64,000 nucleotides of DNA. Origin: a virus. Taxonomy: Duplodnaviria; Caudoviricetes. A model generated the notes under the pieces. That model was not told the origin of the DNA. It did not search any database and worked only from the letters and a program-made list of their open reading frames with translations. Every line of letters starts with the position of its first letter. Within the stretch, counting starts at the first letter, position 1. The position numbers and the translations under genes were made by a program. This document shows positions 298-57,608 of the stretch, piece by piece. The stretch is from positions 42,309 through 106,308 of IMG/VR virus record IMGVR_UViG_3300032290_001460; one strand, written 5' to 3'.

Positions 298-3200
298 ATG
301 AGCCAAGGAACATTTGAAGACATCCATTTTAAGGCGATGAATGGCCAATTCAATATAGATGAGGCACAAGGAATCGTTGAATGTTTCGTTGCCGCCGTAG
401 GTAACAAAGACTCCGTGGGTGACATCGTCGCATCGGGGGCATTTACAGAAAGTCTCAAGCGCCGCAAACCGCGCGTTGTATGGGGACACAACTGGAACGA
501 CCCCATCGGTAAGGTTCTAGAAATTTACGAAGTACCAGCACACGACCCGCGTCTCCCAGGAAAAATGAAGCAAGCAGGAGTGGGCGGGCTCTATGCGAAG
601 GTTCAATTCAACCTTGCAACAGAAAAAGGTCGCGAAGCATTTGCTAGCGTCGCTTTCTTTGGTGGAGACCAAGAATGGTCTATCGGCTATAAGACTCTCC
701 AAGCAAACTTTGACTCCGCCATGCAAGCAAACGTTTTGCGTGAAGTTGAACTGTACGAAGTGAGTCCAGTTCTTCATGGTGCAAATCAACTGACAGCCAC
801 AATTTCCGTCAAGAGCGACGAAGGTGAAAAGTGCCACAGTCCTGCTATGGGCGCTGGAATGCCAATGATGCCAGCAGTAATGCGTGCTTTTAAACCAGGG
901 ATTCCAGAAGGTGGCCCATCGCGCATTTCGGCAAGAATTGGCTACGACGTTTCTAGTCCTCGTGAAGATATTTTTGCAGAAGGCGAAGCACGCGAACTTA
1001 ATCGCGAAGAAATTTATAGACTTGAAGAAGAACTGATGTCACGTTCTAATAATCGTCTCAAGATTATCTCCGCAACTGAAAATATGGTCACATTCCATCG
1101 GATGCTCCCCAATGGTTCATCAACGGCTTACCGTCTCCCATACCACTACGATACGGCTGTTAGACAATACATGTTTGGCAAACCAGAGAAGATGGGACAA
1201 GGTCCTAGCCAGCCTCAACCACAAACAGTCGTTCCTATGCAGATGCCCAGTATGCCAATGTCTGTCAAGCCGAATGCCGTCAGCCCATATGCCATGGTTA
1301 ACGGTGGATACGATGGCGAAAAATCCGTTGAAGAAAGACTCCATGAAGTTATTGCTGGCTTAAAGTTGCCGCTCTTCGACGATGAAGTAGCAGAAAAATC
1401 TCAACAAGATAAAATTGAGGAAGTAGTGAATCTTCTTCAATCCTATATTGAAGAGAAGAGCGAACCCATGCGTGTCATTATGAAATGTGAACCGCATCAA
1501 GCGTTCCGTGTTAAGGAACTACTCGACCCGGTAATTGAGTATCACGGACTTCAGGCAGAAGTCAGTGAAAAGGGCGTCCATCTTTCAGGGACATTCAATG
1601 ATGAAACACTCGATGCACTATATGCGTCAGAGAAAAGTATTCAACGGATGTTCATGAAAGAGGGTGGTTGGGGAAAAGATAACGGCCCTACGGGGCCGAC
1701 CTTCGAAGTTGAAGTAAAAGCCCTCGGAGGCCGAGTTGGCCAAAGAATCGGTGGAGGCCTGAGTGCTGCACCACCAGGGATGGTTTGGGTTGACGTAACC
1801 GGAGCCATAGATGGCGATAGCGATGGAATAGTTTTTGAGGGTACGCCTATGCAGCGTCCCATTATTCCTCGTGCGATGATTCCCAAGGTGCAGGCGTCTA
1901 TACTTCAACAGACTTCCCTCCCCCGCGCTATGGAAATGGAGCGAAATAGGGTTCCTAAACCATCTGTTTCGCAAGAAGATTCCAAACCACGTTTAAATCA
2001 GGTTCCTAAAAAGAATGAATCAGATTCAGTGGTGCCTTCTAAGCCTATTCCAAAAATAGACGACACTATTCCAACACCCAGTAAGGCTCCTAAAAAAACT
2101 CAGGGGCGCAAATCAAGAAAAAGCCCTCCTACTAATCCGAATATATACGACCCGTGGGTTTATAGAAATTCAGGAACCGAGCGCATTCTTGGTAACGAAT
2201 TCAGCATCATTACGCCACTAGATGAAATTATTAACTCTGTTAGTTCTAGAAGTAAAAAATTGACTCCTAAAGAAATTATTGACAATTATGCTTATTTCCT
2301 TAATTATAGAGGCCTAGACACTCAACAAGTTTTTAAAATTTTTGAAAACCATGGTTATGTTAATACTGAAAAAGTCAACCAAACCATATCTGATGAGTTG
2401 AAATTTGCGATAGATGACATTATTGCGGCAGGCGGAAGAATTGTTTTTGCACAAAATAATCTTCTAATTAATTTGGGTGGCAATAAATTAATAATTGATT
2501 TATTAGATAAAGATAGTTATAGTAATGTTAGACAGCAGTTAAGTATGCCCTTGAAGCAATTGTATGTAAAAGAAAGAAAGACAGTAACAAATATTTCGGA
2601 CTTGTCTCCTAGGTATAATTATCTTAAGCCAGAATTGAAAAAATTAAAAGAAAAGTATGGCGATTATTTTGTTATACGCGCCCTGGATGCCGGCCATTAT
2701 TCTGCTGTTCTTTTTGACCCCATCTCTGGTGACCCCCTAAAAACTTATCAATTTAGTGGTAGTCCACGAAGTACTTCTAACCTTTTAAAAAACCTTTCTT
2801 CAGAATTTACAAATGCAGCCGTAGTTAGAAGATTTGAATCAGCAAAAATATGGAAGCCAGCGCGCGAAGTCATTGATAAAGTACCGTTGAGACCAGCAAA
2901 TGAAGGGGAAACCCCAAAATTCGGTCCGCTGAGTGGTACTTCTAAGTTGGTTCAGATTTTTTCTGAACTAGGTTTTTCGCCAGACAGTAAAGAATATCCT
3001 AATGCTCTCGTTGAATTAGAAATACATGATATTGGTGACGGAAAATTTGGTGTATATGGTGTAATCGTAGATGAAGATGGCATAGAACACCTCGTGAGCC
3101 AGGAGCAGGATGGTCTTGCAGATTCATTAGATTTTCTTCGTGCACTAGGTTCAGAATATTCTCAGTCGCAATTATCAGAAATGAGAAGTGCTCATCTAAG

Positions 3201-6200
3201 ACGAATGGGGGTCGTTGGTCAATTGGGCGATACTTCTGGGTTGAGTCAAGAAGTTGAAGAAATGAGGGCTGCTCGTGATGAACGAACTTACAATCAGTGG
3301 TTCGTTGATGATGGTAGTCGTTCGCAAAGAACACCTACCCTAATTTATAATACTGCCGCAAAATCTATAAGAGATATTTTTGATGATGAAAAAACATGGG
3401 ACCCATTCTTTGAAGACCTAAAAGATGTTTTGGGTCATTCTCAAAAACAATCGCAACGCCTACTCGACCTCTACGATGACCCGAACGCTACAGAAGAGGC
3501 TATAACTAATCTTGAGGAATCAATTAGGGAATTAGATGAGCAAATTGCCGCCGTTATTGATTACGCAAAATTTTTAAATGGAGAAAATCGTCGCGCTCGT
3601 CTCAAAAGACTAAAGAATCCTCTTATTAACAAAATGATTGACGAACGTACTGGGGGCGAGTATTCGGATTTTACTGATGCTGAAATTGAAAGACTTAGAA
3701 ACAATCTGACTTTTTCCGAAAATGATATAAGCGATATCTTTGGCGTTGAGGGAAGCGATAAGGCTAGAAATTTCGTTGAATCAATGCAGGATGTTTTAGA
3801 TGATGCGGAATGGTATGACGGCATACTGAGCAGTCCTATAGAGGACGAGAATAACCCTGATTATTTGGAAAATCCATCTCAAGAACTTTACGATGATGCT
3901 ATTAGAAGTTTGAGCATGGAAATTGATTTCATAAAAGATGCTAGAAAGCGTAATCATCAACAAAGACTGGCTATTTCGGATGGTAGCAATTTATCCGATG
4001 GCACCAGTCGCTCGCAGCGTTCCTTCATTAATGGACGTGGAGTGGGCGAAACTAGGCAGATTTTCCCCAATGAAGACAAACAGGGAACTAGTAAAAAAAT
4101 TAAGTACGCTCGTTATGATGGGCGCAAAGAAGAACTGCTGGTTGAATATTCCTCTGGTGAAACCATCACCTATGGTGGAGTAACCGACAGGATGGTTTCT
4201 GCAGTTGAGAAATCACTAGATGATATTGATGGCGGGATTGACGGGATAAAAGCAGAAGCACGCTATTCTATTAAACCAGATGGACAAATAGAAGGCAGGG
4301 CGGTTAGTGTAGCAACGCTAGTGCAGAGAGATATTGAACGTCTCGAACAATACGATGTTATTACTGCAAAAGATAAGTTATGGATGCAATTAGCAGCAAA
4401 TGCCATATTGTCAAATTTTGAAGAACCGCCCGAATATGAACTATTATCCTTGTCTGACCAATTGGCTAATGTGGCAAATAAACTTGCTCGCGAATATGAA
4501 GAAAATTCTGCAGCCCTAAACCTTTTAGAAATTAAAAGTTCTATTGACGACAGAGTAGGCAATGGGCTTGGCGGAACTCGCGGTACACGCATGTATCGTC
4601 CACTGAAGGATGAAACAACATTAGATTTAACCAATGACGAAATTGGTGAATTAAGAGACGAAATTCAATCAATTCTAAACAAACATGGAGACAGAATTAC
4701 TTTTGCTCCTTTTGCAGAATTTGACAAAGCGTTAAAGGACGCTCAAGATTCAAACAAAAATAATGTAACAATTAAAAATAATTTACATTCAGCATTAACC
4801 GTTGCTTACGATGAACTTTACTGGATGGCTTCACACAGTCAAGCAGAGAAAAGATGGCTCAACCCCATTGGGGAAACACTACTCAATATTGCTGCAGCAT
4901 CCGGAAGATTCACCTCCCCACGCCTCAGTGCCAATAGGGGAGACTTCAAGGGCGTCCCATTCAATAATGGCGCACCATCAAGAATGACCCCCGAAGCACG
5001 AACTACCCTCATAGATTGGGCAAACGGAGACGGATTAGGGTTCTATGTTCTAAAAGACATACGTGATTCTTATCGACTCAGGAATGGAAATCTCACCTCG
5101 CGACAGTGGAACACTCTTGCGAACATGTACAGGCGCTTTGGTCCTGGTGGCAGTGACAGAAAAGACTCAAGTAGTAGAAGTAAAAAAGATACAGAAATCT
5201 ACTATGCCATTGTCCCTTCGGACGTCCCGGACCAAATTGACGATGAGGAAGAAGAAAAACCAAAACCCAAGAAGCCAGTAGGAAAACCTGCTTCAGAGTT
5301 ACTGCCAGGCGACTTTGATTCAATGACTGCAAAAGAAAAAATTGATGTCATGTTTCAAATTGGACGTGCAACAAAAGATAATCCCGATGGCATCGCCCCA
5401 GAAGATTGGGACAGACTAATTTATCCCCTAGACAAGGAACTTGATGTAGAAGAAGCAGTACAGAACCAAGCAGAATTCATGGCTGCACAAGAAGCCGCTG
5501 CAATGAGAGGCGAAGTACTAACAGAAGAACAGTTCTACGAAAACAAATCACGTCAAGCGGAATTACACGACAGAAGAACAATACAGCGTGCATTAAGTGA
5601 ATACGACGCTGGACGACCCGAGTTATTGCAAAAACTTGGCCTACGTAGAGAAAACTTTATTATTAAAGCAGATAGAGAATACAAGGCCCCCACTAAGCCA
5701 AAGCCGTTAGGTAAATGGGCTACAGATTTCTCCATGAAGATACGTTCTCAAATAGAAAAAGCAATTGCCAATGGGCTTGCCGGAGAAGAACATCTTGACC
5801 CATGGCTATCCATGGAAGAACTTATTAATGACAACGATGGTCTCCTTGATGAAGAAACTATCCAAAACATTATCCCTGTCCTAGAAGAATATGTCAGTGC
5901 TTATGATGGGGCAGAATTTGGACATCGTTCAGAAGGTAATAGTTATAAACAAGCCAACGACATGATTGAGGAGTTGGAAAATACTCTTTCAATTCTTCTT
6001 GACCCAACAATAATCGAAGACGATTCCGATGATAGCGGAGATGACAAGAAAGACAGCGACGCTGCCTCAGAAGTTCCAGATACAACTCAGGGAGTTTCTC
6101 TATCCATAGAGGGCGATAGTGGTTCAAAAAGCCGTCGCTCATCATCTATGGCAAGTACTACGGGCAGACAAGACGCTGTTGATTCCGGAAGTAACCAAAT

Positions 6201-9200
6201 AAATTCCGAAGATAGTAGCAGGAGTATCCGAGAAGTAATCAAATTAGAAGATTTACTTGAAATAGATAAGCGCGAACAATCCGAAGATATGGGAGAACCA
6301 TTCGTTGAGTTATCAAAGGCCCTCGAAAATTGGTTAAATAATCATATTTCAGATATGGGCGGATGGGACAAAAGTCACGAAACTCGACTACGTAGGCAGG
6401 TAGAAGATTTAATTTTGAATTTACGTGGCTTGCGAGACAAGTGGCAGTCCATGGGGACTGCTAAACGAAGCGGAATATTGAGACGCATGAAGATGGTTGA
6501 TGGCTACGAACCGCACCCTCTAACTAAAATGTCACTTGAAGATATCATTAGTAAATCAGAATTACGTATTCACGATGACGGAACTCTGTCTTTCAAATTG
6601 CCTCCCAACCCAATATTGCGGCAACTCATACCAGGCAACAGAAATTATCAAGATGTAGAGTTGCCCACTGCTGAAACTGTTAGTGAAATTTTTGATAATC
6701 TCACAAATGATTGGCGCAGATTAGATGAATTATTCAATTCAATATATGAAGTTTTTGATGAAGATGAAGACGGGCGACGTGGAGCGCGCCTAAGGAAATA
6801 CCCTGTCGGCGGGGAAAAACTGCCGCACCACTCCTTGTATCTTGGCAAGTACGCTGAACCCCCGACAGAAGCACCATCTCCGGAAGGGGCGCTCCAATAC
6901 CACTACAACGACATTTCTGCTCGTATTCTTCAGTATTACATTATCCCTGAATTAGCAAAAATTAAACGCAATGAAAATCCAAAAATTGGAGAAATCTCCA
7001 ACGATAACGACCATTTTATTCATGGATATTTACAGTTATTTACAGACCCGCATGCCTGGCAGGAGATGAGTGCTGTGTTGTCTGAAAACTTCCGTGTATC
7101 GCCCGGCACCATATTGCATGACTTATTGGGGCACTACGCCCTTGGTAATACTTTTGATAGACACGGAGAATATGGAAATATTCTTTCAACAATTCAACTT
7201 GCTCGCGATAAGAAGTTCTGGCAGAAGTTGCGCGAGATACCAGAACTTTCTGACCTATCCGAAGAGGACAGGGACCTCTACATGCGCGGCTTGCTCGTTG
7301 ATGTGGCCGCAAGATGGTTTAATCGTGTCGGTACAGACTCCCCGGATGACGAGAGGAGATTGAAGAAGAAAATAGCGTTCTACGATGGACCTATTGATGA
7401 ACTTCTTGACAAAATCGACCCGCCTAACGAACAATCGTCAAGTTCTAGTCGTTCTACACGAAGAATCCCATTAATCGATGTCGATGATAAACAACTTTCT
7501 GAGTTAGGTAAAGAATCTATTGATGGTATTGCAATAAGAGAAGAATTTATTAGACCATCTTCTCGTGACGAATTAGAACAATTTGTTTCACGAAGAAAAC
7601 CGATAGGTTCGGACCTGCCTGTTGATTTACGCACTGGCGAACCTCGCCGCATGTCTCATGAGACAGACAGAGAGTGGAATGCTAGAAGAAATAATTTTTA
7701 TAGAAACAACCCATGGTTTGACCGGCCCCCTATTGATGCTTCTGAAGATTCCCCTAAAATTGATAGAAATAACGAATTTGGTGATGGAGAATTAATTAAA
7801 CCCTCATATAAATTTAATTTTAAATGGAACCAGTATCAAGATTATACTGATGAGGAATTAATAGATAAACTTAAATCAGACAAAAAACCTTCCAATACTT
7901 TGGTGCATGAATTGTCTTTACGTGGATATGAAGTTAGAAAAAAAAGAGAATATGATTTAGGTGATTTTAGTGGTAGGGAAGGATATGACTACACATACTT
8001 CTTTGCTAAGCCAATGGATGAAATAACCCAAGAGCATCTTGATAGAAGAAAATCTAAATACAATCCAGTTGATGAAACACAAAAAATAGATGAGCCGTCA
8101 ACCAGCATAATTCCTACATTGGAAGAAGACGTTGTTGATGAACAGGATTTTGTTGAGCCAGAAGAATTCCCATTAAAGCCGAAACAGCCCAGGGTTCCTC
8201 GTCCTCGACCCGGTACCAACACCGTGAATATTGGTGGCAATAATTCGGGAATCATAAATCTCGGCAACAATGTGACAATTGATACTGGCGACATAAATGT
8301 TTCTAATCAGGGCAGTAAGATTACTATTATTAATGGGAACAAGGTTACTGTTGATGCCAATACGGATGTATTGAGTATGCCATTGAAAAAAGTTGATGAA
8401 GAACTTGCTAGCATACAGAAAGATTTAGCGGAACTTAAAGAAAGAAGAGTAAAGGGCAGTATTTCTGATGCTGATTATGCTCAGCGACGCGTAGATTTGG
8501 CTAATAGGAAAGTTGCTCTCAAATTAAAGAAACATTCCGTCCCTGATGGTGATGCAACCAAGGGCACACCCAATGTTTCCTATATTGGCAACAGTTCAAG
8601 GTCAACCAGAAATATTGATTATTATCGTAGGGAATTTAATCTTTCTCCAGAAGATTTGGAATTCATCAAATATACCAATGCCCCAGATTTATTTTTGCGT
8701 GAAGAATTTGGGATAGACGATACAGCCATAGCAGACATTCGTTCTTATGTGCCGCCGTTGGATGTCATCAAGGAAATAGATTCTTTAACCGATGATGATG
8801 TTAGATTCCTTGAATCTTACGATGGTATTGTTTCACAAATTACTGAAGAATTTAATTCTTTTGTAACTCGGACGATGGCCGAACGTCTTCAGGCTATTCA
8901 ATACATAGGAAATTCTAATCTCCCTGAATTGGAAAAACAAGAAAACATAAAAGAAATTGATGATGCATTTAATGAATTATTAAAAGTTAACAGTGAAATA
9001 CATTTCGATAGGCTGAATGATGCCGTACTATATACGGCACCTTTAAATTATCGCGGTTTTGGTTGGAGGATGACCCCAGAAAGAATTTCTTCACTTGGCT
9101 TACCTGAAGGCTATGAAAACAAATTAAAGTTCAATCAGGCTACTCGCATTTGGGAAATGATGAATGGACTGGGCTTTGACTGGGACGAAATCGAAGATTT

Positions 9201-25758: not shown

Positions 25759-26283
25759 ATGAAACCCAGGGCTATTTTGGTTGGTGAAGATGAGGGGCGT
25801 AAATTATATTATTTCCTTGACCCTATTGGTTCGGGTAAAAGCGATGGCGCAATTATAAATGATGATAATAAACCAGAAATGATAGATTTCTTCACCTACA
25901 TCGCCACCCACCCGTACATTAAAGAATATAAATTCACCGACTTTCACAAATTCCTCTGGGAAAACCCAAGTCAAGAAGACGAAAAAAAATGGGTAAGAAC
26001 ATTCATAAATAAAACCCAAAGTGTAGATGGTGACCTGTTAAATGGTGTCAAAATAGAAACAGACCTTGACCCAGGAATTCGCTCAAAACACTACTTTGAA
26101 AATCGAGGAATCGACTTCAAAGCATTGCGTGCCTCCAATGCGCTGGAGAATATGGATGGTTCGGTACTTGCTAGACAAATACCGTACAATCTGCGGACGG
26201 TAGGTTCAAAAATATTTAAAGAAAAAACTTTAGAATCAAAGAAAAACAGAAAGTTCAAGTTGGATGGAACACAAAATGGATGA
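25759..26283 (+). CDS. Hypothetical protein (174 aa)
   Basis: ORF tightly coupled to its neighbours, with GGAG upstream. No motif recognised. Confidence 0.7.
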   Translation: MKPRAILVGEDEGRKLYYFLDPIGSGKSDGAIINDDNKPEMIDFFTYIATHPYIKEYKFTDFHKFLWENPSQEDEKKWVRTFINKTQSVDGDLLNGVKIETDLDPGIRSKHYFENRGIDFKALRASNALENMDGSVLARQIPYNLRTVGSKIFKEKTLESKKNRKFKLDGTQNG

Positions 26284-39062: not shown

Positions 39063-39098
39063 CAATAATTTTACTTATTGCCAAGGAGGAGGTGTGTT

Positions 39099-46800: not shown

Positions 46801-49339
46801 AGCAAGAGCAAGTGATAAAAAAACTTTTGAAACATTTAGACAATTACTTGATGACGAAATACTTGTTCCAATTTCTAGAGATTCTGCCGTCCCAAATATA
46901 CGTAAAGGGAAAAAAGGAATAACAGAATATGGCGGCACAAGTGATAGTGAAGATTTTGCTGAAACAATAAAATTGTATATATCAGACTTGCGGAATAGTG
47001 GTTTATTCAGAAATAAAGATACTAATGAAATGGTCCGTTTTTCGGATATGTTCCCTAATCTTCATGGAATGCTTAAAGAATTTTTATCAACATACGAAAC
47101 TAATACAACCGATAAGGAAGTTATAGAAACAGTAAGCGACAGTTCTTTCTCACGGCGTTCTAGTGGGTTTTCTAACGGGACGTGGAAAATCGAAGGAAAT
47201 GTCGTGCAGGAAATTAGTAAATGGCCCGATAAAAATACACCTCAGGGTAAAAAAATCCTTGATAGTGCCGAATTCAAAACACAGGTGGCATTGCTGGATG
47301 CAATGAATATTTGGCGAGGTAGTTTTAGTGACAGTAGAATGTTGGCTCGTATTCTTGGTGGTCTCAAGCCTCCAGAGGGAACTCAATACGTCGACGACAG
47401 GTTTATGAATATAGCACGAGTGCTTGATGGTGCTCTTGAAAATGCTCCCACTATTTCTGGTCAAGTTACTATCGCCGGAAAATCCATACCACTCCCCCTG
47501 TATCGTTCGATGCGATTAACGCCAGATGTTTTCGATAGCATAAATTTTGGTGTTGGCAGCGAATTGAATTTTAGGGCTGCTTCAGCAGCATTTAGGGCCG
47601 ATGTTGCGGCACAGTACAACATTGATGAATTAACCAATTTAGGTATTCGTGGAGGAATGCCTAAGAAAATCATTGTTCAGTTGCCCAGTGATACCAAGGG
47701 GCTAGTTTTTGATGATAGAAAAACTATCGTTGCGGACCAATTTAATGAACGCCCAGTAGAAGCAATCATTCGTGGAAACTTTAGGGTCGCTTCAGTCAAA
47801 ACAATAACTATGCGCGACCCAATAACACGCAAGGATATTGAACAAGAAATTCATGTTATGGAACATATTGAACCGCCGACAAGTTCTCGTTCCACTAGAC
47901 GTAAATATCACACAACGAATACACGACTAGACATCGGCGACTTTATTGTTTCACCTCGTAAGTCTGGCAAGGAGAATGAAAGTTCTAGTCAGATAGATTT
48001 CAATGATTCTTCAGTGGTTTACGCATCTCCCAATTTTGCTGATGTGACTAGAGGAATCGAAGATTTTGCTAGTTCTGGCAGATATAAAGATAGTAACGGG
48101 CCTCTCTATATGTATCAAATTGAGGACACATCTCCAGCGAGCCTTAGTAGCGACACGTTCCCCCGTAATGAACTATCAATGACGTCATCTAGGGTGGAAC
48201 GAGGCAAGGTCACTGGCATTTATAAGGTTTCCGATGATGGCGATGCTTTCATGTTTTCTGGTGGCTCGCGTTCAAGACGTAAGGGCGCAGGAGTACCAGC
48301 ATCCAAGCCTAAAGATACACGCAGAGCAATAAGAGGCAAAATTGTTTCTGGTCGTCAGGGAATTGACGAAGATGGACTTACTCCAGAATTCATTCAAGCC
48401 ATGGAGTCAAAAATGGAAGAGATGGGTCTTTCTAGGGAAATGTTTCAAAAGACTCTTGATGATTTTTTAAAAACTTTAACTAGAACTAATATCGATATTG
48501 GTAAAAGATGGTACCCATTCGTTAATCGTCGAATGAGAGATATGGTCGAAGATTTAAATAATAGATATGGTACTTCTATAACTTTCGAGCAGGGCGCCGC
48601 CGTAATGGCAGCGTTATCTCCTTTGAGGGAAGTGAATGAAAATATCAAGGCGGCAAAATTAATTTTAAGAACTTTTGCTGCTGATGAAGATTTTGAGATA
48701 ACAGAAGAATTATTAAGTAAGTTAAAAATTTCAAAAAAAGAAGTTGAGATTTTCCTTGCTCGTGCTGGCGATGGAAAAATTAGACCTTCTGAATTTAACG
48801 ATGACGAAATAGAAATACTCATAGGTTTGAATCTTGGTTTTCTTAAAGCCGGAAGTGTTGATGGTCTTGCGAATATTAAAAAATCAATTTTTATTTTGAG
48901 AGATAAAAATTCAATAGATGATGTGCTTAAAGGGCCCAAAGTCCGTTCTTTTTATTCTAATATCGTAGACCCAAATGGAACTAGAGTGACGATTGATACA
49001 TGGATGTATAAAATGATGGTTCCTCCAGATGTAAAAATATTATATAAAGGGCAAGAATTAACACTTGCCGAACATTTGAACATAAAGGGACCCGACGGCA
49101 AGAAAGTAAATAACGTTCAAGCGATGTTCCAAGCAACGCCACAAAGCAAAAAATTGGGTGGACAAATTGGTTTATACCCCATATTTGCTGAATTGATAAG
49201 AAATGCAGCAATAAAATATAATATTCCTCCCTCTGCTCTTCAGGCAGCACTTTGGGAAAGGTTCAGGATGCAACTTTCTAATTATCAGCCAACTGATTGG
49301 GATGAAGTTGCTGGACTTTTTGATTTGGATGTAGAATAA
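43862..49339 (+). CDS. 1825-aa polyvalent protein: ParB/Srx-like domain, two lethal-factor-like zincins, ADP-ribosyltransferase-like domain, Arr-like domain, C-terminal glycosylase-like helical domain
   Basis: Tag at 44171-44280. VSEGNHRLHAA at ~44630. HEHGH at 45656 and HELGH at 46718. LYRSM...PVEAIIRG at ~47500-47775. YHTTNTRLDIGD...VVYASP at ~47905. AALSP/GPKVRSFYSNI/VTIDTW/LQAALW at 48600-49256. Confidence 0.85.
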   Translation: MNMNWTFTIGDKDYSATYDNASFVTDSPLVEYYVNKLIDDRTVVEIGDVGPMATASFETDAHAWGTITHAIRKLANIGSGKYPFSPLNGEDEIVKPDDKEPKTKSLGPSLGGVNEPFDPNAFDGDNDGMVQDSTQWERPALPGQIPTVVSQEVARPVSLTFTGPDPRILYPDMVGKTGSARYGNSPSIRIEHPLSPGNDIAFVSVRDLMKLPGNMPNDDGEIIFEERVEKLRQELLSNGFRSPIDIAYDPTTGRAYVSEGNHRLHAAFAAGYSYIPTTIFPMRINENRPALIITKDLDKWPWRETADGVYYNKNHMRERYLEREDAWPPFAPSEQDKKHIPNMRIHPLWVLPQGSIAGEISDNGVWGPLQPNAIEPLTDTSRSKREFSFFPSLGKKNRVNKKALSQVGPYPVVGDVDYPSTTHRFKVHGYETLWAVPEVGGLNPGEMLLIRDYSDEIKNFHHIEGISDGLVRMTKSGQVLFTILSPEESVELRESISTGKPLSASIEQRISDRFVKIPGEDGTIDDAIDFMYSILPSNITKPKQISLFEQEVIDEFTYPDGQKTIVTVDAHASHTQKSMTFWNGHTPTESLETMRTFFHEHGHMIDPIPPMYYMVHPTATQMLGDSPEKPMYFSDSIAWGAAVERDSQVAHSMILKNALIHPETRTRMSFISGKKAVSLYGTTDVREDFSEALAMYLIDKFYGSFVINEELGTNVRFAQLFPNRAQFFDDVIGTLYSFDEPLENLVKAITTGDFNAINSSRSSRIVPSKSTLIPDGIFDVEEPRFGSVQKLVRYTMDNPEINVFLFKNAALSPSSSQKTEFGIAVKHLVPNNLLSRDGHFISVDISESEFEELSTSMVLGNGIPQEISNRINSKLDIIRNQMQKLHAVLPDGAVSKMSFIHASEKSLFLPWVDVDGQAVTQISNGLGQEPRNFIAIYSLNRHTESHLSDVLAHELGHILDRDGGRNYKKSFVNESNRWLKARASDKKTFETFRQLLDDEILVPISRDSAVPNIRKGKKGITEYGGTSDSEDFAETIKLYISDLRNSGLFRNKDTNEMVRFSDMFPNLHGMLKEFLSTYETNTTDKEVIETVSDSSFSRRSSGFSNGTWKIEGNVVQEISKWPDKNTPQGKKILDSAEFKTQVALLDAMNIWRGSFSDSRMLARILGGLKPPEGTQYVDDRFMNIARVLDGALENAPTISGQVTIAGKSIPLPLYRSMRLTPDVFDSINFGVGSELNFRAASAAFRADVAAQYNIDELTNLGIRGGMPKKIIVQLPSDTKGLVFDDRKTIVADQFNERPVEAIIRGNFRVASVKTITMRDPITRKDIEQEIHVMEHIEPPTSSRSTRRKYHTTNTRLDIGDFIVSPRKSGKENESSSQIDFNDSSVVYASPNFADVTRGIEDFASSGRYKDSNGPLYMYQIEDTSPASLSSDTFPRNELSMTSSRVERGKVTGIYKVSDDGDAFMFSGGSRSRRKGAGVPASKPKDTRRAIRGKIVSGRQGIDEDGLTPEFIQAMESKMEEMGLSREMFQKTLDDFLKTLTRTNIDIGKRWYPFVNRRMRDMVEDLNNRYGTSITFEQGAAVMAALSPLREVNENIKAAKLILRTFAADEDFEITEELLSKLKISKKEVEIFLARAGDGKIRPSEFNDDEIEILIGLNLGFLKAGSVDGLANIKKSIFILRDKNSIDDVLKGPKVRSFYSNIVDPNGTRVTIDTWMYKMMVPPDVKILYKGQELTLAEHLNIKGPDGKKVNNVQAMFQATPQSKKLGGQIGLYPIFAELIRNAAIKYNIPPSALQAALWERFRMQLSNYQPTDWDEVAGLFDLDVE

Positions 49340-49844: not shown

Positions 49845-49873
49845 ACTCAACACATTATTAGATGAGGTAATTT

Positions 49874-51691: not shown

Positions 51692-53011
51692 ATGTCAGAA
51701 GACACTTCACGTCTGAACGAACTGCAAAGCGCACTCCGTTCAAAGATGTCCGATAATAAGGCCATCGCAGACTCATTCAAGATTCAAGACGGCACCGTCG
51801 TTGTATCAACCGACCAAAAGACAGCGTTTGACAAGAACATGCGCGACATCAAGGAAATCAAGAGTCTCATCGAGGGCCTTGAATCATTCCGCGAAGTCGA
51901 TGCATGGAGTAATCAGGCTTCAGGTCAGTCAGTTGGCGCATCGGCTGCTGCTAGCGCCGCTGGTGCTTCGGCACAGCGCACCCAATTCAAGTCAATCGGT
52001 GATGAGTTCGTCGGTTCGGCTGAATTCAAGTCACTTAACGGTGGCCGCAACGGCGCAAACATGCCTACCCCATTCACGACCAATGCAGTTCTCACCGGCT
52101 CATACAGCCAGAAGGACCTGTACTCAGGATTGCCGACCGGAAACCCCGGTACCTTCGGCAACATCCAGCGTGACCCGATTGTTATTCCTCCAATGCGCAC
52201 CAAGCGTGTTCGTGACTTGTTCCCCGTTCGTACAACGAACGCTCAAGTTATCGAATACTTCCGCATGACGGGATTCACCAACAACGCTGCAGCAGTTGCA
52301 CAGCGCAACAATGACAACACCAACTTCGGCATCAAGCCGCAGTCGTCCTTCACCTTTGTGGGCGAGCAGGCTCCGGTCCGCACCATCGCTCACTGGGAAG
52401 CCGCACACCGTAACGTTCTCGCTGACGAACCGCAATTGCGTTCAATCATCGACAACGAATTGATGTACGGTCTCCGTTTGCAAGAAGATGCACAGATTCT
52501 TGCTGGTGACGGTACTGGCGAAAACCTTCAGGGTGTTCTCACCACAACGGGTATCCAGACATACGACTGGTCGGACGGCGCACATTTGCCTGTCGCAGAT
52601 ACTAAGGTCGACGCAATTCGTCGTGCCGCAACCCTGTCGTTCTTGGCTTACTACGAGCCAACCGGCGTGGTTCTCCACCCGAATGACTGGGAAGACATGG
52701 AACTCGCTAAGGACGACAATGGCCAGTACCTCGTTGCTGTGTCGGTCGCCCTTGGTGGAGAGCCCAAGTTGTGGCGTATCCCTGTCGTCGAAACCCCAGC
52801 AATGACAGAAGGCACCGCTCTTGTCGGTGCATTCGGTACCGGAGCACAGTTGTACGACCGTGAGCAGGCCAGCATTAGAATCAGCGAACAGCACAGCGAC
52901 TTCTTCGTCCGTAACGCCATTGTGATTCTTGCCGAACAGCGTTTGGCTCTTGCTGTCAAGCGTCCGGAAGCATTCGTCAAGGTCAACTTCGACGCAGCAC
53001 CAACAGCCTGA
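51692..53011 (+). CDS. Major capsid protein, HK97 fold, with an N-terminal coiled-coil delta-like domain
   Basis: Motifs VRDLFP, VRTIAHW, LRSIIDNELMYGLRLQEDAQILAGDGTGENLQG, VVLHPNDW...KDDNGQYL and FVRNAIVILAEQRLALAVKRPEAFV. Strong codon bias. Confidence 0.97.
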   Translation: MSEDTSRLNELQSALRSKMSDNKAIADSFKIQDGTVVVSTDQKTAFDKNMRDIKEIKSLIEGLESFREVDAWSNQASGQSVGASAAASAAGASAQRTQFKSIGDEFVGSAEFKSLNGGRNGANMPTPFTTNAVLTGSYSQKDLYSGLPTGNPGTFGNIQRDPIVIPPMRTKRVRDLFPVRTTNAQVIEYFRMTGFTNNAAAVAQRNNDNTNFGIKPQSSFTFVGEQAPVRTIAHWEAAHRNVLADEPQLRSIIDNELMYGLRLQEDAQILAGDGTGENLQGVLTTTGIQTYDWSDGAHLPVADTKVDAIRRAATLSFLAYYEPTGVVLHPNDWEDMELAKDDNGQYLVAVSVALGGEPKLWRIPVVETPAMTEGTALVGAFGTGAQLYDREQASIRISEQHSDFFVRNAIVILAEQRLALAVKRPEAFVKVNFDAAPTA

Positions 53012-53127: not shown

Positions 53128-53304
53128 ATGGGACGCCATACATTTAAAGACGATGATAATGATTTCGATTGGGAAGAAATCGAAAAAGTTACAAAAAATT
53201 ACAAGGGCTCTGCAGACGATTTGGAAGACATACTCATTGATGAGGCTTACCAAAAACGTAAGAAGAAAAAGAAGCCAGGGCGCTTCACCGACGAAGAAGG
53301 TTGA
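53128..53304 (+). CDS. Small hypothetical protein (58 aa), not in the ORF track
   Basis: MGRHTFKDDDNDFDWEEIEKVTKNYKGSADDLEDILIDEAYQKRKKKKKPGRFTDEEG. The stop overlaps the next start. Confidence 0.6.
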   Translation: MGRHTFKDDDNDFDWEEIEKVTKNYKGSADDLEDILIDEAYQKRKKKKKPGRFTDEEG

Positions 53305-56300
53305 CCGTGAAGTTTGATTCAATAGATAAAATTCAGGTTGTTGAAACTGAAGGTAAGGCTGCCCCAGTTTGTCCACCAGCAACACAGGATATTGGATTAA
53401 ATATTAAAAATCGCCAGAACGCGATTGACACCGCTGGTTATGGCCCCCTAAATCCTGCCGAACCGAACGATGAGTTCTGGGAGAAAAAAGGTGACCGCTG
53501 GAGTGTCTCCATTGAAGAGGCTAAAAAGCAGGTTTGTGGCAACTGTATTCTTTTTGTTCGCTCTCCACGCATTTTAGACTGCATTGAGGGCGCCCTGGGT
53601 AATGAAGCCGGCAATACGGCAATGGATATTGTTGAAGCAGGCGAAATCGGGTACTGTGAAGCGTTCGACTTCAAGTGTCACTCTGCGCGTACTTGTGATG
53701 CATGGGTTGTTGGTGGTCCGACTGTCACCGATGGAAAAGCCAATGATGAGGACGAGGAAGACAAAGAAGAGACTAAAGACGTTTTCGGGTCTATGCCGAG
53801 TGGTAATCCCGGAACATTTGGTTCAGTGGAACGAGATGGAACCGTAGGTAAGCCGCCGTTTCGTGATGACAATGAAAAGAAAGCATATTCTTTCATCGAC
53901 TCCATGGATGATGATGAATTGGAAAAGACGTTCCCTATTGATGACGAGATAGCCGTTGAAGAAGTTAAGGGGATGTTCGGGGTTTCGACAGGTTTCATAT
54001 TAGGAACCCTGAATGAGCGACGCAAGAACAAGAAAAAGAAAAAGTTAGAGGAATTAGAAGGAAAAGAAAATTCCTTGTCTTTGCTAGAAATGAAGGAAGC
54101 AGAATTCAATAGTTATATTGACTCATTGGATGATGATGAATTTGACATCATGTTCCCTGACGATTCTGACGAAACAATTAATGATGCAAAATGGCTATTT
54201 GATACCGCTGGTGGTTTTATACGGAGGGGCATTACCGGTCGTCGCAAGAAAATAAGAAAGACAGATGAGCAGTTCTCTATCAAGGGTGCAGGTAATCGTG
54301 AATCAAGCGACTCCAAAGGTGGTCTATGTTGGGACGGTTACAAGCAAGTCGGTATGAAGAAGGGCAAGAACGGTCGAATGGTTCCTAATTGTGTTCCAAT
54401 TTCGCCAGAAGAGAAATCGGCAAGCAAGCCCGTTCTTCGTGACCCCAAGGGTGGTCTTACTGCTGCTGGCCGCAAGTATTTTAAGAATAAAGAAGGCGCC
54501 GACCTTAAGCCCGGAGTCAAGGGACCCGCTGATACTCCTGACAAAATGCGCCGTAAGGGTTCTTTTCTTGTGCGCTTCTTCACCACTCTTTCTGGCCCCC
54601 TAAAAGATGAGAATGGGCGGCCTACGCGTCTTGCTCTTTCTGCTGCGGCGTGGGGAGAGCCTGTCCCACAGACTGCAGTTGCCGCCAAGAAACTTGCTGC
54701 CAAGGGTCAACGACTTCTTGAGAGATATCGTAAATTGCAGGATAAGCAAAAGAAAAAAGAATACGATAATTCTATTATTGAAGAAAAATCTCTTACAGTT
54801 GATGAAATTGATTCAAAAAATTTCATTACTCCTAGTTTCAGAAATGCGGGATATAGAGAAGCAATCAATGGGGCTAAACCGATTGTAGAAAAAACTGCAA
54901 AAATATATGTCAAAATTGATAATTCTGATGATGTTTCTAAAGTTATTAATACAAAGGTCGATGGGGCAGGCGAGCCCGAAAACAAAAAAAAAATAGTTGA
55001 GTTAGAGTTTCTTTCCGTTAAGGAACTTGGTGCAACGATTTCTTCTAACGGGAAAAAACCTTCGACAACACAAAAGCCGGCCAAGTCCAACACTCGCACC
55101 ATTGGTGGAGGTTCATCATCTAGCGGCGGCTCGTCTGGTGAAAGGTATGACCCGAAAGCAGTAGACCGCGATGGCGATGGAAGCGTTCAAGAAGGAACTG
55201 ATTTCATGCGACCCGCACAGTCCCCTAAAAAAGATGAGGGGAACAAAACGAAGCCAAGAAGAACTGCCGACAACTTGGAACGAGCAATGGAATCTGTCAA
55301 CTGGGAAGACTTCAGTAAATTAGTTGCATCAGAAGCAAGAAAATTAAAACCAGGTCAAGCGACCAATTGGAATGCCGGCATTCTGCCGAATGGCATCATT
55401 GATACTGACGGTAGATTTATTCCAGCGCCAATTGAACCTGGGAACATTGATTTATCAAACAGAGAGCCGATACGTCTAGATGATGGTTCCATGGCTACTG
55501 TACGTAGTATTTCCGGAGTTGTTGATGGTAAAGAAGTATTAATACCTACAATAGGACCTAATGGTGAAAACTGGAATCCCGATACTGAAGAAGGAAGAAA
55601 TGCTGCTTGGAATGAGTATTTTGAAACAGGAAAAAATTTAGGAACGTTTAATAACGCCGAAGAGGCTAATGTTTTTGCGGAATGGCTGCATCGACAAGAA
55701 GAGTCAAGAGTTAAAGATAAGCCAACCCCGACGCCTACCACTCCTACTCCCAAGCCTCCTGTGCCCACACCTCCAACCCCACCCGCACCTACAGTGCCGC
55801 CGACGCCTACTCCTAAGCCCACTACTCCCACGCCTGGTCCAACGCCACCGACAGCACCGCCTGTCCCTGGTCCAACGCCACCGACAGCACCGCCTGTTAA
55901 GCCTGCACCAAAACCTCCCGTAGGACCCAAAGAACGTGGAGAAGGCGCTACGCCCAAGCCGCAGGCTCCTTCAGATACGCCTACTGAAGGACGGGGTGGG
56001 CCCTCAAAGCCTGACAAGCCGAGCGTTCTACTTCCACCCGTTTCTAGTCCTCCCCCAACAACGCAGCCGGGAATTCAGTTTAACCCACCCACAACAACCA
56101 CTCCACCCACAACAACCACTCCACCAGCGACTACAACGCCGCCTACGACTACACCAGCAAAACCAGTTACACCCGTTGGTCCAAAGGAAAGAGGAGAAGG
56201 TGACATTCCTCCACGTCTTGGGCCTGCACCAGTTGGCCCCACAACAACTGCCCCACCAAAAGTAGGACCAGCCACCCCTCCAATTAATCCACCCACAACA

Positions 56301-57608
56301 ACAAAACCTCCCACTACAACTAAGCCACCGACTACAACTCCACCGACTACAACTAAGCCACCGACTACTCCAATTCCTAAAGAGAGCACGGTAGATGTTG
56401 ACGCTATTAACGAGTATGTACGTTCGCGTATTGATGCCGCCAAAGAATCTGCAGACAAAGCAAAAGAAAAAAATGATGAGCGGAGACGAGAACAGGGTGC
56501 CAGGCGAGCAGGCATGTACGAAGAAGCAAAACGCCGACGTAGTGGCAGTGATGGCGAATCTACTAATTCAAACAACGATAATGAGACAGATATCGGCGAG
56601 CCATTATTCCCTCCAGAAACTACTCCAACTCCACCAACAGAAGGAGCGGGGGATACTGATAGCCAATTCGTACGTGGCTCTTATGACGTTGATAGTGATT
56701 TCTTGAATCAGAACTCATGGAATTTATGGAAGAACCCTGAATTTGATTCTTTAAAGGAAGGGCAATCAATGCTCCTTACTGATATCCCTGATGCGCGGGG
56801 AGTAGGAGATATGGAATTTGCTATTGCAGTAAAAATTAACGACACAATAGTCTTGCAAGAATTAGATAAGAAGTCATATTCAAAAATTGAGAATGACAGC
56901 AAAGATAAAATTAGTGACGCGACATTTAAATCATCAGAAACATACAAGATAATGGCAGAGGCAGCAAGTGGTTTTGATATGATAAAGGCCACTTTCCCAG
57001 ATGTTGAAAAAGTATTGGAACAGATAACAATTTCTAACGACCCTGCATTGGATGATGCGGAGCGAAATGATGGTTTTATAACTTGGGGTTCAGCGTTAAG
57101 TCCAGGAAATACCTATACTTTGTATCCGGCTGGAGTAAGAGGTACTTCTGCCTCGGGAGCGTTAGAGAGAACTGTTGCTCACGAGATTGCCCACCTCTAT
57201 CAGAATAACAGTATCTATTCATTTGACCGAGATTTGTCAATGAGTTGGGAAGAAGTCCAATCACGAGATGCTGAGATATCACGAAAATTTGCTGATGAAA
57301 ATGGATTCAGAATATACGATATTCCACAAGGGGAATATCATGCCCCCGATATAGGAAGTATTGGAATAACTGATTACGGCGATACGATGATTGAAGAAGA
57401 CTGGGCTGAATCGTTCATGTATTACTGTATTTCAAAACAGGAAGGCGGAATAGGGACTGATGATAACGGCAATGTAGTTACATTCGAAGACCTATATCCC
57501 AATAGAGCCAAGATGATTAATGAGTGGATGGATACATGGAAAAAAGATAATGAAAGTCCAGGTGTAGATGCAATTACAGATGCACTCACAGATGCATTTA
57601 CATTATAA
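53301..57608 (+). CDS. 1435-aa multi-domain head-associated protein: Cys-rich N-terminal domain, CWDGY motif, DUF6321-like domain, DxDxDG tag, Pro/Thr linker, C-terminal lethal-factor-like zincin
   Basis: Motifs CPPATQD...CGNC...GYCEAFDFKCHSARTCDAW, CWDGYKQVGMK...VPNCVP and DPKGGLTAAGRKYF...RRKGSFLVRF. YDPKAVDRDGDGSVQEGTDFMRP at 55146. HEIAH at 57180 followed by ITDYGDTMIEEDWAES. Confidence 0.82.
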   Translation: MTVKFDSIDKIQVVETEGKAAPVCPPATQDIGLNIKNRQNAIDTAGYGPLNPAEPNDEFWEKKGDRWSVSIEEAKKQVCGNCILFVRSPRILDCIEGALGNEAGNTAMDIVEAGEIGYCEAFDFKCHSARTCDAWVVGGPTVTDGKANDEDEEDKEETKDVFGSMPSGNPGTFGSVERDGTVGKPPFRDDNEKKAYSFIDSMDDDELEKTFPIDDEIAVEEVKGMFGVSTGFILGTLNERRKNKKKKKLEELEGKENSLSLLEMKEAEFNSYIDSLDDDEFDIMFPDDSDETINDAKWLFDTAGGFIRRGITGRRKKIRKTDEQFSIKGAGNRESSDSKGGLCWDGYKQVGMKKGKNGRMVPNCVPISPEEKSASKPVLRDPKGGLTAAGRKYFKNKEGADLKPGVKGPADTPDKMRRKGSFLVRFFTTLSGPLKDENGRPTRLALSAAAWGEPVPQTAVAAKKLAAKGQRLLERYRKLQDKQKKKEYDNSIIEEKSLTVDEIDSKNFITPSFRNAGYREAINGAKPIVEKTAKIYVKIDNSDDVSKVINTKVDGAGEPENKKKIVELEFLSVKELGATISSNGKKPSTTQKPAKSNTRTIGGGSSSSGGSSGERYDPKAVDRDGDGSVQEGTDFMRPAQSPKKDEGNKTKPRRTADNLERAMESVNWEDFSKLVASEARKLKPGQATNWNAGILPNGIIDTDGRFIPAPIEPGNIDLSNREPIRLDDGSMATVRSISGVVDGKEVLIPTIGPNGENWNPDTEEGRNAAWNEYFETGKNLGTFNNAEEANVFAEWLHRQEESRVKDKPTPTPTTPTPKPPVPTPPTPPAPTVPPTPTPKPTTPTPGPTPPTAPPVPGPTPPTAPPVKPAPKPPVGPKERGEGATPKPQAPSDTPTEGRGGPSKPDKPSVLLPPVSSPPPTTQPGIQFNPPTTTTPPTTTTPPATTTPPTTTPAKPVTPVGPKERGEGDIPPRLGPAPVGPTTTAPPKVGPATPPINPPTTTKPPTTTKPPTTTPPTTTKPPTTPIPKESTVDVDAINEYVRSRIDAAKESADKAKEKNDERRREQGARRAGMYEEAKRRRSGSDGESTNSNNDNETDIGEPLFPPETTPTPPTEGAGDTDSQFVRGSYDVDSDFLNQNSWNLWKNPEFDSLKEGQSMLLTDIPDARGVGDMEFAIAVKINDTIVLQELDKKSYSKIENDSKDKISDATFKSSETYKIMAEAASGFDMIKATFPDVEKVLEQITISNDPALDDAERNDGFITWGSALSPGNTYTLYPAGVRGTSASGALERTVAHEIAHLYQNNSIYSFDRDLSMSWEEVQSRDAEISRKFADENGFRIYDIPQGEYHAPDIGSIGITDYGDTMIEEDWAESFMYYCISKQEGGIGTDDNGNVVTFEDLYPNRAKMINEWMDTWKKDNESPGVDAITDALTDAFTL
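55720..56378 (+). repeat. Pro/Thr-rich low-complexity coding repeats
   Basis: PTPTTPTPKPP, PGPTPPTAPPV x2, PPTTTT and PPTTTK units, PVGPKERGEG x2. Confidence 0.85.

Follow-up and report, generated by a model that had tools for sequence, protein, structure and literature searches.

The window, the whole 64,000-nucleotide stretch of DNA analysed here, carries a 57-kb block, the head module of an uncultivated phage with a genome of about 150 kb, whose host possibly belongs to the Actinobacteria. The block encodes a head protease, a major capsid protein and a series of very large proteins that share two short motifs, called here the tag and the linker.

1..186 (genome 40404-42494), + strand: 3' end of the portal gene (PF04860 Phage_portal, E 2.4e-47)
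298..13563, + strand: 4421-aa ORF with S78 protease, extension, tag, nine linker-separated cargo segments and an HTH array at its end
361..819, + strand: S78 (HK97 gp4-type) prohead protease domain, aa 22-174 (PF04586, E 2.7e-10)
823..1716, + strand: protease extension, aa 176-473, with small folded domains at about 231-300 and 344-455; kept in relatives
1714..1869, + strand: tag copy 1 (VKALGG ... DGDSDG ... EGT ... RP), 55 bits by HMM
2242..11094, + strand: nine linkers of 18 nt each in the protease ORF, at 2242, 3313, 4003, 5170, 6214, 7444, 8593, 9313 and 11077
13850..15646, + strand: conserved 598-aa head-module ORF with neither tag nor linker; homologues follow the protease ORF in 22 loci
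15667..25755, + strand: 3362-aa ORF with a conserved N-terminal domain and four linkers (nt 20389, 21889, 22231 and 22774), tag absent
25759..28959, + strand: three ORFs of 174, 225 and 673 aa, syntenic and conserved, with neither motif
28962..30581, + strand: 539-aa ORF with a conserved N-domain (aa 1-188), tag, linker SSRSSR and a helical C-domain (aa 312-480)
29562-29678, + strand: tag of the 539-aa ORF, from the HMM scan
29853-29870, + strand: linker SSRSSR of the 539-aa ORF
30585..38807, + strand: 2740-aa polyvalent protein with a DUF3721 N-domain, tag, then cargo segments and four linkers (nt 32355, 35157, 36204 and 37338)
31197-31334, + strand: tag of the 2740-aa ORF, from the HMM scan
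39078..40688, + strand: 536-aa ORF with a tag near its N-terminus and one linker
39186-39305, + strand: tag of the 536-aa ORF, from the HMM scan
39393-39410, + strand: single linker of the 536-aa ORF
40929..43865, + strand: 978-aa ORF with a tag at aa 15-54 and no linker
40971-41090, + strand: tag of the 978-aa ORF, from the HMM scan
43862..49339, + strand: 1825-aa ORF with a tag, four linkers (nt 44999, 46136, 47882 and 48263), DUF7178 and a zincin-like segment
44168-44287, + strand: tag of the 1825-aa ORF, from the HMM scan
51692..53011, + strand: HK97-fold major capsid protein with an N-terminal delta-like domain (PF05065, E 1.1e-45)
53301..57608, + strand: 1435-aa ORF after the capsid gene, with DUF6321, a tag and no linker
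55092-55223, + strand: tag of the 1435-aa ORF, from the HMM scan

By ORF coordinates, 38.1 kb separate the end of the protease ORF from the start of the capsid gene, in agreement with the roughly 38 kb given in an earlier note on this sequence. The cargo block amounts to about 16,000 residues of giant multi-enzyme proteins, with the head protease and the capsid gene at its flanks; Pfam matches place portal, terminase and capsid genes around it, so that the polyvalent proteins are encoded among virion and packaging genes. The portal gene lies directly upstream of the protease ORF, as its homologues lie upstream of the protease in 29 related loci. Several small ORFs follow the large ORF at 43862-49339, a pattern that the earlier note had described. 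Neither the 598-aa ORF at 13850..15646 (Pfam, PHROG and NCBIfam) nor the three ORFs within 25759..28959 matched any family in the searches. The segments after the tag of the 2740-aa protein are Zeta-toxin-like, pentapeptide-repeat, ArdC-N with MPTase, and kinase-like (PF08401, PF18818, PF06414 and PF00805), with the ArdC-N and MPTase unit (aa 1548-1816) bracketed by linkers at aa 1525 and 1874. This protein thus combines several unrelated conflict-type domains in one chain, as polyvalent proteins do, and the first ORF joins an S78 protease to an HTH array. A MuF (SPP1 gp7-like) domain was absent among the Pfam, PHROG and NCBIfam matches of all block ORFs, which sets the block apart from MuF-anchored head effectors.

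The protease domain matches PF04586 with 41.1 bits against a curated cut-off of 21 and is encoded between the portal gene, which ends at nt 186, and the capsid gene, which starts at nt 51692, placing it in the S78 family. Residues H64 (in WGH) and S128 (in EWSIGY), which we take to be the catalytic His and Ser of S78, are invariant in 29 homologues. The domain is folded in the AlphaFold model; the best Foldseek rows were the EBV, HCMV, HSV and VZV proteases and T4 gp21, all weak, with E values of at least 0.05 and low TM scores. Disordered stretches separate the two small domains of the extension. Tag copy 1 falls within a predicted disordered stretch, aa 473-655, which is closed by the first linker (aa 649-654), and the next helix begins at aa 657; in the models, the disordered stretches that hold tag and first linker stop 8-14 residues short of the next folded domain. 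The capsid protein matches HK97 capsids in the PDB (E 1e-55), and alignment with relatives reveals a conserved boundary, FK|SIGDEF, at aa 100/101.

The tag spans about 40 aa, [KR]-x-[LI]-G ... DPNAxDGDxDGxVQEGTxxxRP, and occurs in seven plus-strand ORFs, one copy each; a six-frame HMM scan found no eighth copy in the block and none elsewhere in the 106-kb genome. The leader K-[ASGE]-[LI]-G proposed earlier holds for six of the seven copies, which begin K-[ASG]-[LI]-G, and fails for the seventh, R-T-I-G. Residues D21, D23 and D25 are invariant in all seven, followed by Gly in six and Ala in one, and the sequence carries the D-x-D-x-D-G pattern of DxDxDG calcium-binding loops. The tag is predicted to be disordered (pLDDT 30-45) and matches no family in Pfam, NCBIfam or PHROGs. 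At the DNA level the copies are 67% identical, and codons vary among copies here and in relatives, indicating that selection acts on the protein.

Rather than an address, the tag could be a junction or processing module between conserved carrier and variable cargo, perhaps one that binds Ca2+, which might serve as a protease docking and cleavage site or ease cassette exchange; we regard this as unlikely. The tag mostly sits exactly between conserved N-domains (protease plus extension, N28962, N30585 and DUF6321) and hypervariable C-terminal cargo, in some relatives' proteins it is repeated 2-5 times between modules in a linker-like manner, and its K-[AS]-[LI]-G start resembles the capsid maturation boundary, all of which, with the DxDxDG loop pattern, fit such a junction. 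Polymorphic toxins offer a parallel, in that their pre-toxin motifs (VENN in CdiA, DPxGL in Rhs) part a conserved delivery region from a swappable C-terminal effector, as the tag may here; these are, however, secreted bacterial toxins rather than virion cargo, and a protein has just one such motif instead of 6-25. Many proteins, moreover, bear the tag at their extreme N-terminus, with no preceding carrier from which to be released, and the tag DNA copies share no long identical runs, which would make them poor recombination substrates within a genome. A protease fusion should already carry its cargo into the head, yet the tag is retained there, which fits a role beyond junction marking. We keep to a sorting function, with the qualification that the tag may be a docking or processing module and not a pure address.

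The linker is the second shared motif. Exact SSRSx[RK] occurs 17 times in six ORFs against 0.07 expected, and xSRSx[RK] 23 times in total (17 exact and six variants) against about 0.9; every SSRS within the linker ORFs precedes x-[RK], and the maximum over 2000 shuffles was four SSRS. Among the remaining ORFs of 150 aa or more in the 106-kb genome, none contains SSRSx[RK] or xSRSx[RK]. No linker of the block ORFs lies within a Pfam domain. The flanks are rich in Arg, Ser and Gly; a composition test was weakly positive (p = 0.018), and hydropathy was no different. That large head-module proteins share tag and linker, as the earlier note had it, is borne out by counts far above chance and by confinement to head-module ORFs. 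The recurring order of tag, domain and linker that it described is real in its parts and less regular than stated: the ORF at 15667 has linkers and no tag, those at 40929 and 53301 have tags and no linker, so that the two signals are separable, and five block ORFs (starts 13850, 25759, 26264, 26938 and 50221) have neither. Its figure of 30 or more effectors stands as an upper bound, about 31 segments if every site were cut.

At least 843 protein clusters, nearly all of them from viruses, match the tag profile, as do at least 397 stretches in IMG/VR; all of the relatives are metagenomic sequences. Gene order is conserved, running from portal and protease-extension-tag-cargo through to two carrier-tag-cargo genes and the capsid. 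Both S78 and PF05065 are present in each of the three tag-bearing records with a completeness of at least 90%, and the motif scan for co-occurrence with the head module that had been proposed links the grammar to a protease of the S78 family and a capsid of HK97 type. A start made up of protease, extension and tag recurs in at least 222 giant proteins of 2,431-5,687 aa, and 106 of 113 of these fusions contain a single four-residue linker in 6-25 copies, where fewer than 0.2 would be expected. SSRSx[RK] itself did not prove general: relatives use GMRS, GLRS, GFAS, GLAS, GLSS, (R)LSSG or LGSRS instead, and, judged from sequence, it is one lineage's form of a [G/S]-[M/L/F/S]-[R/A/S]-S linker. In a relative with 62-87% identity, SRSx[RK] is kept at 12 of 13 alignable sites, and module insertions and deletions begin at linkers. 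Distant relatives carry their own lineage's motif at corresponding boundaries in 17 of 27 cases (63%), compared with 10 of 164 (6%; p = 5e-11). The motifs are thus conserved and their sites fall at domain or module boundaries, for tag and first linker in the AlphaFold models as well, two of the points on which the earlier idea had been open to refutation. Together, the sequence comparisons support a tag-plus-linker grammar on which selection acts at the protein level, which is found in the head module only and which hundreds of related uncultivated phages have kept. The literature searched contained no description of it, in keeping with the earlier claim.

Linkers need not be cut: they might be short motifs for binding (to the capsid interior or DNA, for instance) or for modification such as phosphorylation, set in flexible connectors of giant proteins that act as intact chains. 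Uncut transfer is known for the N4 virion RNA polymerase and for several polyvalent proteins of plasmids (PMC5512222), and the composition of the flanks would suit connectors. We nonetheless consider this very improbable. The motif is strictly uniform within a genome and is exchanged in concert, at corresponding sites, between lineages, which points to a single, narrowly specific reader acting in trans; the known phage-head cases of such a pattern are protease sites, and intact chains of 3,000-5,700 residues would need passage through the tail.

If the linkers are cut, the S78 protease is the likeliest cutter, although the comparison of S78 domains does not single it out. The domains barely vary between linker classes (74-97% identity), pairs 95-97% identical carry different linkers, and no consistent specificity residue tracking linker class was found among them. 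The capsid boundary, x|[ST][IVL]G[DEQ]xF, has no linker and stays constant while the lineages' linkers change, so that S78 must accept two kinds of site if it cuts both. The residue before this boundary differs from relative to relative (K, S, Q, G, R, A, Y or E), which leaves the HK97 K|S analogy of the earlier note weak for the capsid. Packaged cargo could alternatively be cut at its linkers by MPTase-PolyVal or another cargo zincin in trans, or by a host protease after injection, and each lineage's linker would then track that enzyme or host; this seems to us improbable. Zincins usually prefer a hydrophobic P1' residue, which cutting at G-|-[M/L/F] would fit, but the linker here has Ser at the relevant position, and a host protease of such four-residue specificity is not known to us. 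Iyer et al. proposed that polyvalent proteins are self-processed by their MPTase (PMC5512222). An MPTase is present in cis in 75 of the 106 linker-rich protease fusions, three relatives (G000, G001 and G003) each carry one, and G002, the only near-complete relative whose protease is separate and which lacks MPTase, has tags and no linker enrichment. The other 31 fusions, however, lack it in cis, and in five linker-bearing records (84-118 kb, 56-79% complete) MPTase-PolyVal is missing altogether, among them G007, which has the whole head module on its contig; it is because of these five that S78 remains our preferred cutter.

The system is a variant of polyvalent proteins and of protease-processed head proteins, both already known. 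We take the tag start, [KR]|x-[LI]-G, to resemble the HK97 cut, K|SLG. Like HK97, in which the protease is co-assembled into the prohead, the phage has a PF04586 protease, a PF05065 capsid fold and a capsid protein with its own N-terminal scaffolding-like domain; unlike here, HK97 gp4 is small, self-digesting and cargo-free. An encapsidation signal of the HK97 protease is attributed to Duda, Oh and Hendrix 2013 as cited in PMC9024508. The prediction made for polyvalent proteins is that they are packaged, enter the host together with the DNA and are freed by peptidases embedded in them, and RNA-virus polyproteins are named as an explicit analogy (PMC5512222). The proteins here resemble them as giant chains that combine conflict domains (ArdC-N, MPTase zincin, Zeta-toxin-like, helicase, HTH and others) and as products of genes that lie beside those for portal, terminase and capsid; they differ in the address tag and repeated cleavage or linker motif, none of which is described there, in the N-terminal protease, found here and in at least 222 relatives, and in lacking a MuF anchor.

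Capsid-targeting sequences of T4 and P1 have been reviewed (PMC9024508). As with T4 IPI-III and Alt, whose N-terminal targeting sequence of about 10 aa is removed by gp21 at (I/L)-x-E, a short peptide would send proteins into the prohead. In T4, phiKZ, 201phi2-1 and SPN3US, one head protease cuts many head proteins at I/L-x-E or A/S/G-x-E, including, in SPN3US, ejection proteins (PMC10052503); at A/S/G-x-E sites Ser is preferred at P1'. In all of these systems propeptides are removed and the products are ejected into the host. The protease here is S78/HK97 gp4-type rather than T4 gp21-type and the motifs, [KR]-x-[LI]-G and SSRSx[RK], differ too, which places the system outside T4-type targeting and gp21 processing, though by analogy it may work in a similar manner. 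Substrates of T4/phiKZ type, moreover, are for the most part individual proteins that are shortened by an N-terminal propeptide and do not form chains of 5-25 modules, and no lineage-private code replaced at corresponding sites is reported for them. In P1, the 250 kDa anti-restriction protein DarB is similarly loaded into an HK97-like head through an N-terminal signal, a 30-aa capsid-targeting sequence that also works on a reporter, and DarA is processed (PMC9024508); the Dar signal, however, has no sequence similarity to the tag, Dar loading proceeds stepwise through partners, and Dar proteins have no repeated linker.

What the sequences show is the motifs and their statistics, their placement at the boundaries of modules, their conservation, and a replacement in concert from lineage to lineage; encapsidation, cleavage, the identity of the cutter and delivery we infer. 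Some cargo would enter the procapsid covalently joined to the protease and its extension, some joined to one of three conserved N-terminal carrier domains, and the shared disordered tag, which begins with a site resembling that of capsid maturation, [KR]|x-[LI]-G, would dock and sort the remainder. Within the procapsid, cuts would fall at the repeated linker (SSRSx[RK] in this phage, G-[MLF]-[RAS]-S or [LF]-S-S-G in those of other lineages), releasing up to about 30 separate enzyme and DNA-binding modules that would exit with the DNA and counter host defences. We put head-loaded cargo, cut at its linkers most likely by S78 and delivered with the DNA, at about an even chance.

A broader proposition, which we offer tentatively and think rather doubtful, is that a large phage group uses a two-part code, made up of a universal disordered address tag and a lineage-private cut word, which is rewritten in concert at dozens of positions in each genome and co-evolves with the specificity of the head protease. 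CBASS has been reported to sense prohead-protease activity through decoy loops (PMC12991175), and, if the code is real, host immunity of this kind would be a candidate driver of its divergence. Modules would then be freely swappable between phages, because only the joints of 4-6 residues would need rewriting.

The window comprises the right-hand 64 kb of one 106,308-bp virus record, whose completeness CheckV places at 71%. Its packaging and head genes are arranged as follows:

Window start, plus strand: 3' end of the portal gene (PF04860)
After the portal gene, plus strand: ORF1, 4421 aa, with an S78 prohead protease (PF04586) as its first 175 residues
51692-53011, plus strand: major capsid gene with the HK97 fold (PF05065; PDB HK97 capsids at E about 1e-55)
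After the capsid gene, plus strand: 1435-aa ORF
Upstream of the window, opposite strand: large terminase with a LAGLIDADG/Hom_end insertion

Twelve more plus-strand ORFs, with sizes that include 3362, 2740, 1825 and 978 aa, lie between ORF1 and the capsid gene. The domains identified in this block, namely ArdC-N, the zincin MPTase-PolyVal, Zeta-toxin-like, pentapeptide repeats, a kinase-like segment, DUF7178 and an HTH array, are those typical of polyvalent proteins; most of the block sequence has no match in Pfam, PHROG or NCBIfam. Four small plus-strand ORFs (59, 56, 63 and 116 aa; 49344-50224) follow the 1825-aa ORF. Just left of the window, the LAGLIDADG/Hom_end segment that interrupts the minus-strand terminase (Terminase_6N + 6C; L083:17654-19999, genome 37654-40149) is probably an intein. 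In the left arm, also on the minus strand, a 1222-aa protein with Lcl_C domains (L082:5153-8818) and one of 652 aa that carries a Peptidase_S74 chaperone domain (L082:11077-13032) are probably tail fibres.

Two peptide motifs recur in this genome. The first, the tag, is a module of about 40 residues with one copy in each of seven ORFs, and takes the form [KR]-x-[LI]-G, a short basic/glycine-rich stretch and then (F/Y)DPNAxDGDxDGxVQEGTxxxRP; an HMM scan of all six frames turned up no eighth copy. The second is the linker SSRSx[RK], with 17 copies spread over six ORFs where 0.07 would be expected; x-[RK] comes after every SSRS in the linker-bearing ORFs, and counting six xSRSx[RK] variants as well gives 23 (about 0.9 expected from composition). 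The remaining 50 kb of the genome holds zero linkers, its tape measure and tail genes included. The tag and repeated linker described in the earlier note are therefore real. The recurring layout that it read into them, a tag followed by domains separated by linkers, stands as to the shared motifs but not as to its uniformity: the giant ORF 15667 (ORFs are named by their start nucleotide) carries linkers but lacks a tag, in two ORFs a tag stands without linkers, and five have neither. The Ser and Arg codons of the linkers differ freely among copies, and column identity among the tag DNA copies is only 67%, which argues that both motifs are selected as peptides and rules out a DNA-level repeat or recombination signal.

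Searching with a profile built from all seven tag copies gave at least 843 protein clusters (E <= 1e-3; 1.84 billion representatives) and at least 397 IMG/VR stretches. The tag belongs to no known family in Pfam, NCBIfam or PHROGs, and was not found in GenBank phages by tblastn, nor in the Gordonia GMA6-like phages, the nearest cultured relatives by capsid and protease. A strict tag DNA pattern matched 30 times in 596 Gb of prokaryote genomes; only one match is a true tag (L113:3651-3682), located on a low-coverage contig of 7 kb that was binned with an Acidimicrobiia MAG. This tag and the actinophage-like capsid offer a weak hint of the host group, and Actinobacteria of freshwater or the sea are suspected as hosts. 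Across 80 IMG/VR loci, the tag-bearing ORFs are very large and place the tag at one of four recurring positions, giving four architectures, in which the extension is the part of the protease fusion ahead of the tag and the cargo is the variable part after it:

Architecture 1: protease, extension, tag, cargo
Architecture 2: conserved 200-aa N-domain (as in ORF 28962), tag, cargo
Architecture 3: DUF3721 N-domain (as in ORF 30585), tag, cargo
Architecture 4: tag at the extreme N-terminus

A common gene order is kept: portal, protease fusion, a homologue of ORF 13850, three small conserved ORFs, two genes with a conserved N-terminal carrier followed by tag and cargo, capsid, and a DUF6321 protein. 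With S78 and PF05065 both found in three of three tag-bearing records at least 90% complete, the tag and the head module co-occur in related phages. In the two complete genomes (141 and 151 kb), the protease stands at the start of open frames of 3988 and 4905 aa, and a search limited to proteins of 2431-7737 aa recovered at least 222 with a protease-extension-tag start, named in the databases only as 'HK97 family phage prohead protease'. Genes for an ART toxin and an HNH endonuclease sit between portal and protease in the nearest cultured relatives. Such proteins in Gordonia phage ChisanaKitsune, gp22 and gp23 (a VIP2-like ART toxin and a 969-aa HNH endonuclease; L001:7657-7743 and L001:8736-8822), have in common a 29-residue N-terminal motif, 17/29 identical and ending ...WGxPYGTPITPG, which is possibly a head-cargo tag of another kind or a degenerate one.

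In a de novo count of four-residue words, every relative strongly over-represents a word of its own (GMRS, GLRS, GFAS, GLAS, GLSS, GFSS, (R)LSSG, FSSG); among the dialects of this general linker, SSRS is one. The top word is repeated 6-25 times in 106 of 113 giant protease fusions, where fewer than 0.2 are expected; repeated linkers are thus near-universal in these fusions, while SSRSx[RK], the motif originally put forward, is itself one lineage's form. Linker codons are heterogeneous in relatives too. The linker of the complete 141-kb relative (L124, G001:C1:63913-75876), [KR]-x-L-G-S-R-S, occurs about 22 times; in it x-L-G, as at the start of the tag, is combined with SRS, the core of the window linker. 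In a relative 62-87% identical, 12 of the 13 sites that can be aligned still read SRSx[RK], and insertions or deletions of modules start at linkers. In distant relatives, GLSS, GMAS, GMSS, GLRS and GLAS stand opposite the linker at aa 298 of ORF 28962, and GFSS, GFAS and GLSS opposite that at aa 2189 of ORF 15667. BLAST HSP end-points fell near linkers in 30 of 379 cases against a null mean of 11.7, a crude test with a noisy null, and an upstream-motif test was used in its place. Where alignments to distant homologues start just after a window linker, the subject carries a linker-type word at most 35 residues upstream in 17 of 27, against 10 of 164 at other alignment starts (Fisher p = 5e-11, for alignments that are not phylogenetically independent); several exceptions have the subject's tag directly upstream in place of a linker. 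Since corresponding sites carry each lineage's own word, the modules are common to lineages and their joints rewritten to the local word.

We modelled aa 1-700 of ORF1 from a 29-row alignment. In the model, the protease is folded at aa 23-160 and two small folded domains lie in the extension, followed by predicted disorder at 473-655 that holds the tag and first linker (649-654), with the next helix starting at 657. The model of ORF 28962 has a folded N-domain (1-188) and a folded helical C-domain (312-480), and the disordered stretch between them (189-311) holds the tag (202-245) and linker (298-303). In both models the two motifs thus lie in predicted disorder between folds, in agreement with the claim of the earlier note that they mark domain boundaries. 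No linker falls within a Pfam domain, and the ArdC-N + MPTase unit of ORF 30585, whose MPTase segment covers aa ~1700-1820, has a linker on each side. Linker-flank composition was only weakly positive in a crude test, and hydropathy was also weak. Fold searches pointed only weakly to the protease fold, and matched the carrier and C-domain of ORF 28962 only to uncharacterised phage proteins and generic helical bundles. Elsewhere in these proteins, the ORF1 extension has four copies of the word E-K-S in a stretch of about 100 residues (1321-1640, aa 342-446), which could represent self-digestion sites by analogy with HK97 K|S. The last cargo segment of ORF1 (12034-13492, aa ~3914-4390) is an array of about eight winged-helix/HTH domains with LexA-, AsnC-, MarR- and IclR-type Pfam matches. 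The untagged ORF 15667 has a proline-rich run of PGP and TPPT repeats after a conserved domain (~18300-18460, aa ~880-930); TPPT occurs 13 times in the block.

Given its predicted disorder, the tag probably works as a short linear motif and becomes ordered upon binding; Ca2+ binding would be compatible with its DxDxDG pattern. A role as an address is suggested by its place at the extreme N-terminus of proteins having no other conserved part. Its exact location at carrier-cargo junctions, the resemblance of its [KR]-x-[LI]-G start to the capsid boundary and the 2-5 tag repeats in some proteins would suit a junction or processing module.

The best-supported reading of the locus is a head-cargo system, of which we infer all that goes beyond the sequence grammar. 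The proteins would enter the procapsid via fusion to head components or via the tag, the cargo would be cut at the linkers, and the resulting modules would be delivered with the DNA. Capsid-targeting sequences in T4 IPIII and P1 DarB provide a precedent (PMC9024508), SPN3US gp245 cleaves head and ejection proteins at A/S/G-x-E with a P1' preference for Ser (PMC10052503), and polyvalent proteins were proposed in 2017 to be packaged and self-processed (PMC5512222).

If the linkers are cut, the likeliest cutting enzyme is the S78 protease, the sole protease always present and often part of the same chain. Five linker-bearing records (56-79% complete), one with the whole head module on its contig, are without MPTase-PolyVal, and 31 of 106 linker-rich fusions have no MPTase in cis. 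The same five records weaken the alternative that the zincin is the cutting enzyme, to which a cut ahead of the hydrophobic linker residue would be suited. Counting against S78, or at least unexplained by it, the capsid protein is without a linker and its maturation boundary is constant across linker classes while the linkers vary. Proteases in a pair 95-97% identical have different linkers with no consistent residue change, and neither mutual information nor near-identical pairs yielded a consistent column for an S78 specificity residue. The one near-complete relative without MPTase is, moreover, also without linkers. Herpesvirus assemblin cleaves at (V/L/I)-x-A|S, and a cut after the register [M/L/F/S]-x-S, one of two candidate scissile bonds, would resemble this rule.

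The concept of packaging and processing is already in the papers covered, where we found no description of the tag-plus-linker grammar. The polyvalent proteins of Iyer et al. (PMC5512222) carry an assemblin-like peptidase at the C-terminus, whereas here the protease is N-terminal. In a recent preprint, prohead-protease activity is sensed by CBASS (PMC12991175), which we speculate might be a selective reason for lineage-private cleavage words. If the head-cargo reading is true, the 2017 prediction of packaged, self-processed polyvalent proteins would become directly testable, with defined sites and a tag, and a natural portable tag and cleavable linker would be at hand for putting foreign proteins into HK97-type capsids. 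That the cleavage word switches in concert at 95-97% protease identity would make an unusually clean case of co-evolution in protease-substrate specificity. A sequence rule would then locate virion-delivered effectors and their exact module boundaries, most such modules being without any known family, in thousands of metagenomic phage genomes.
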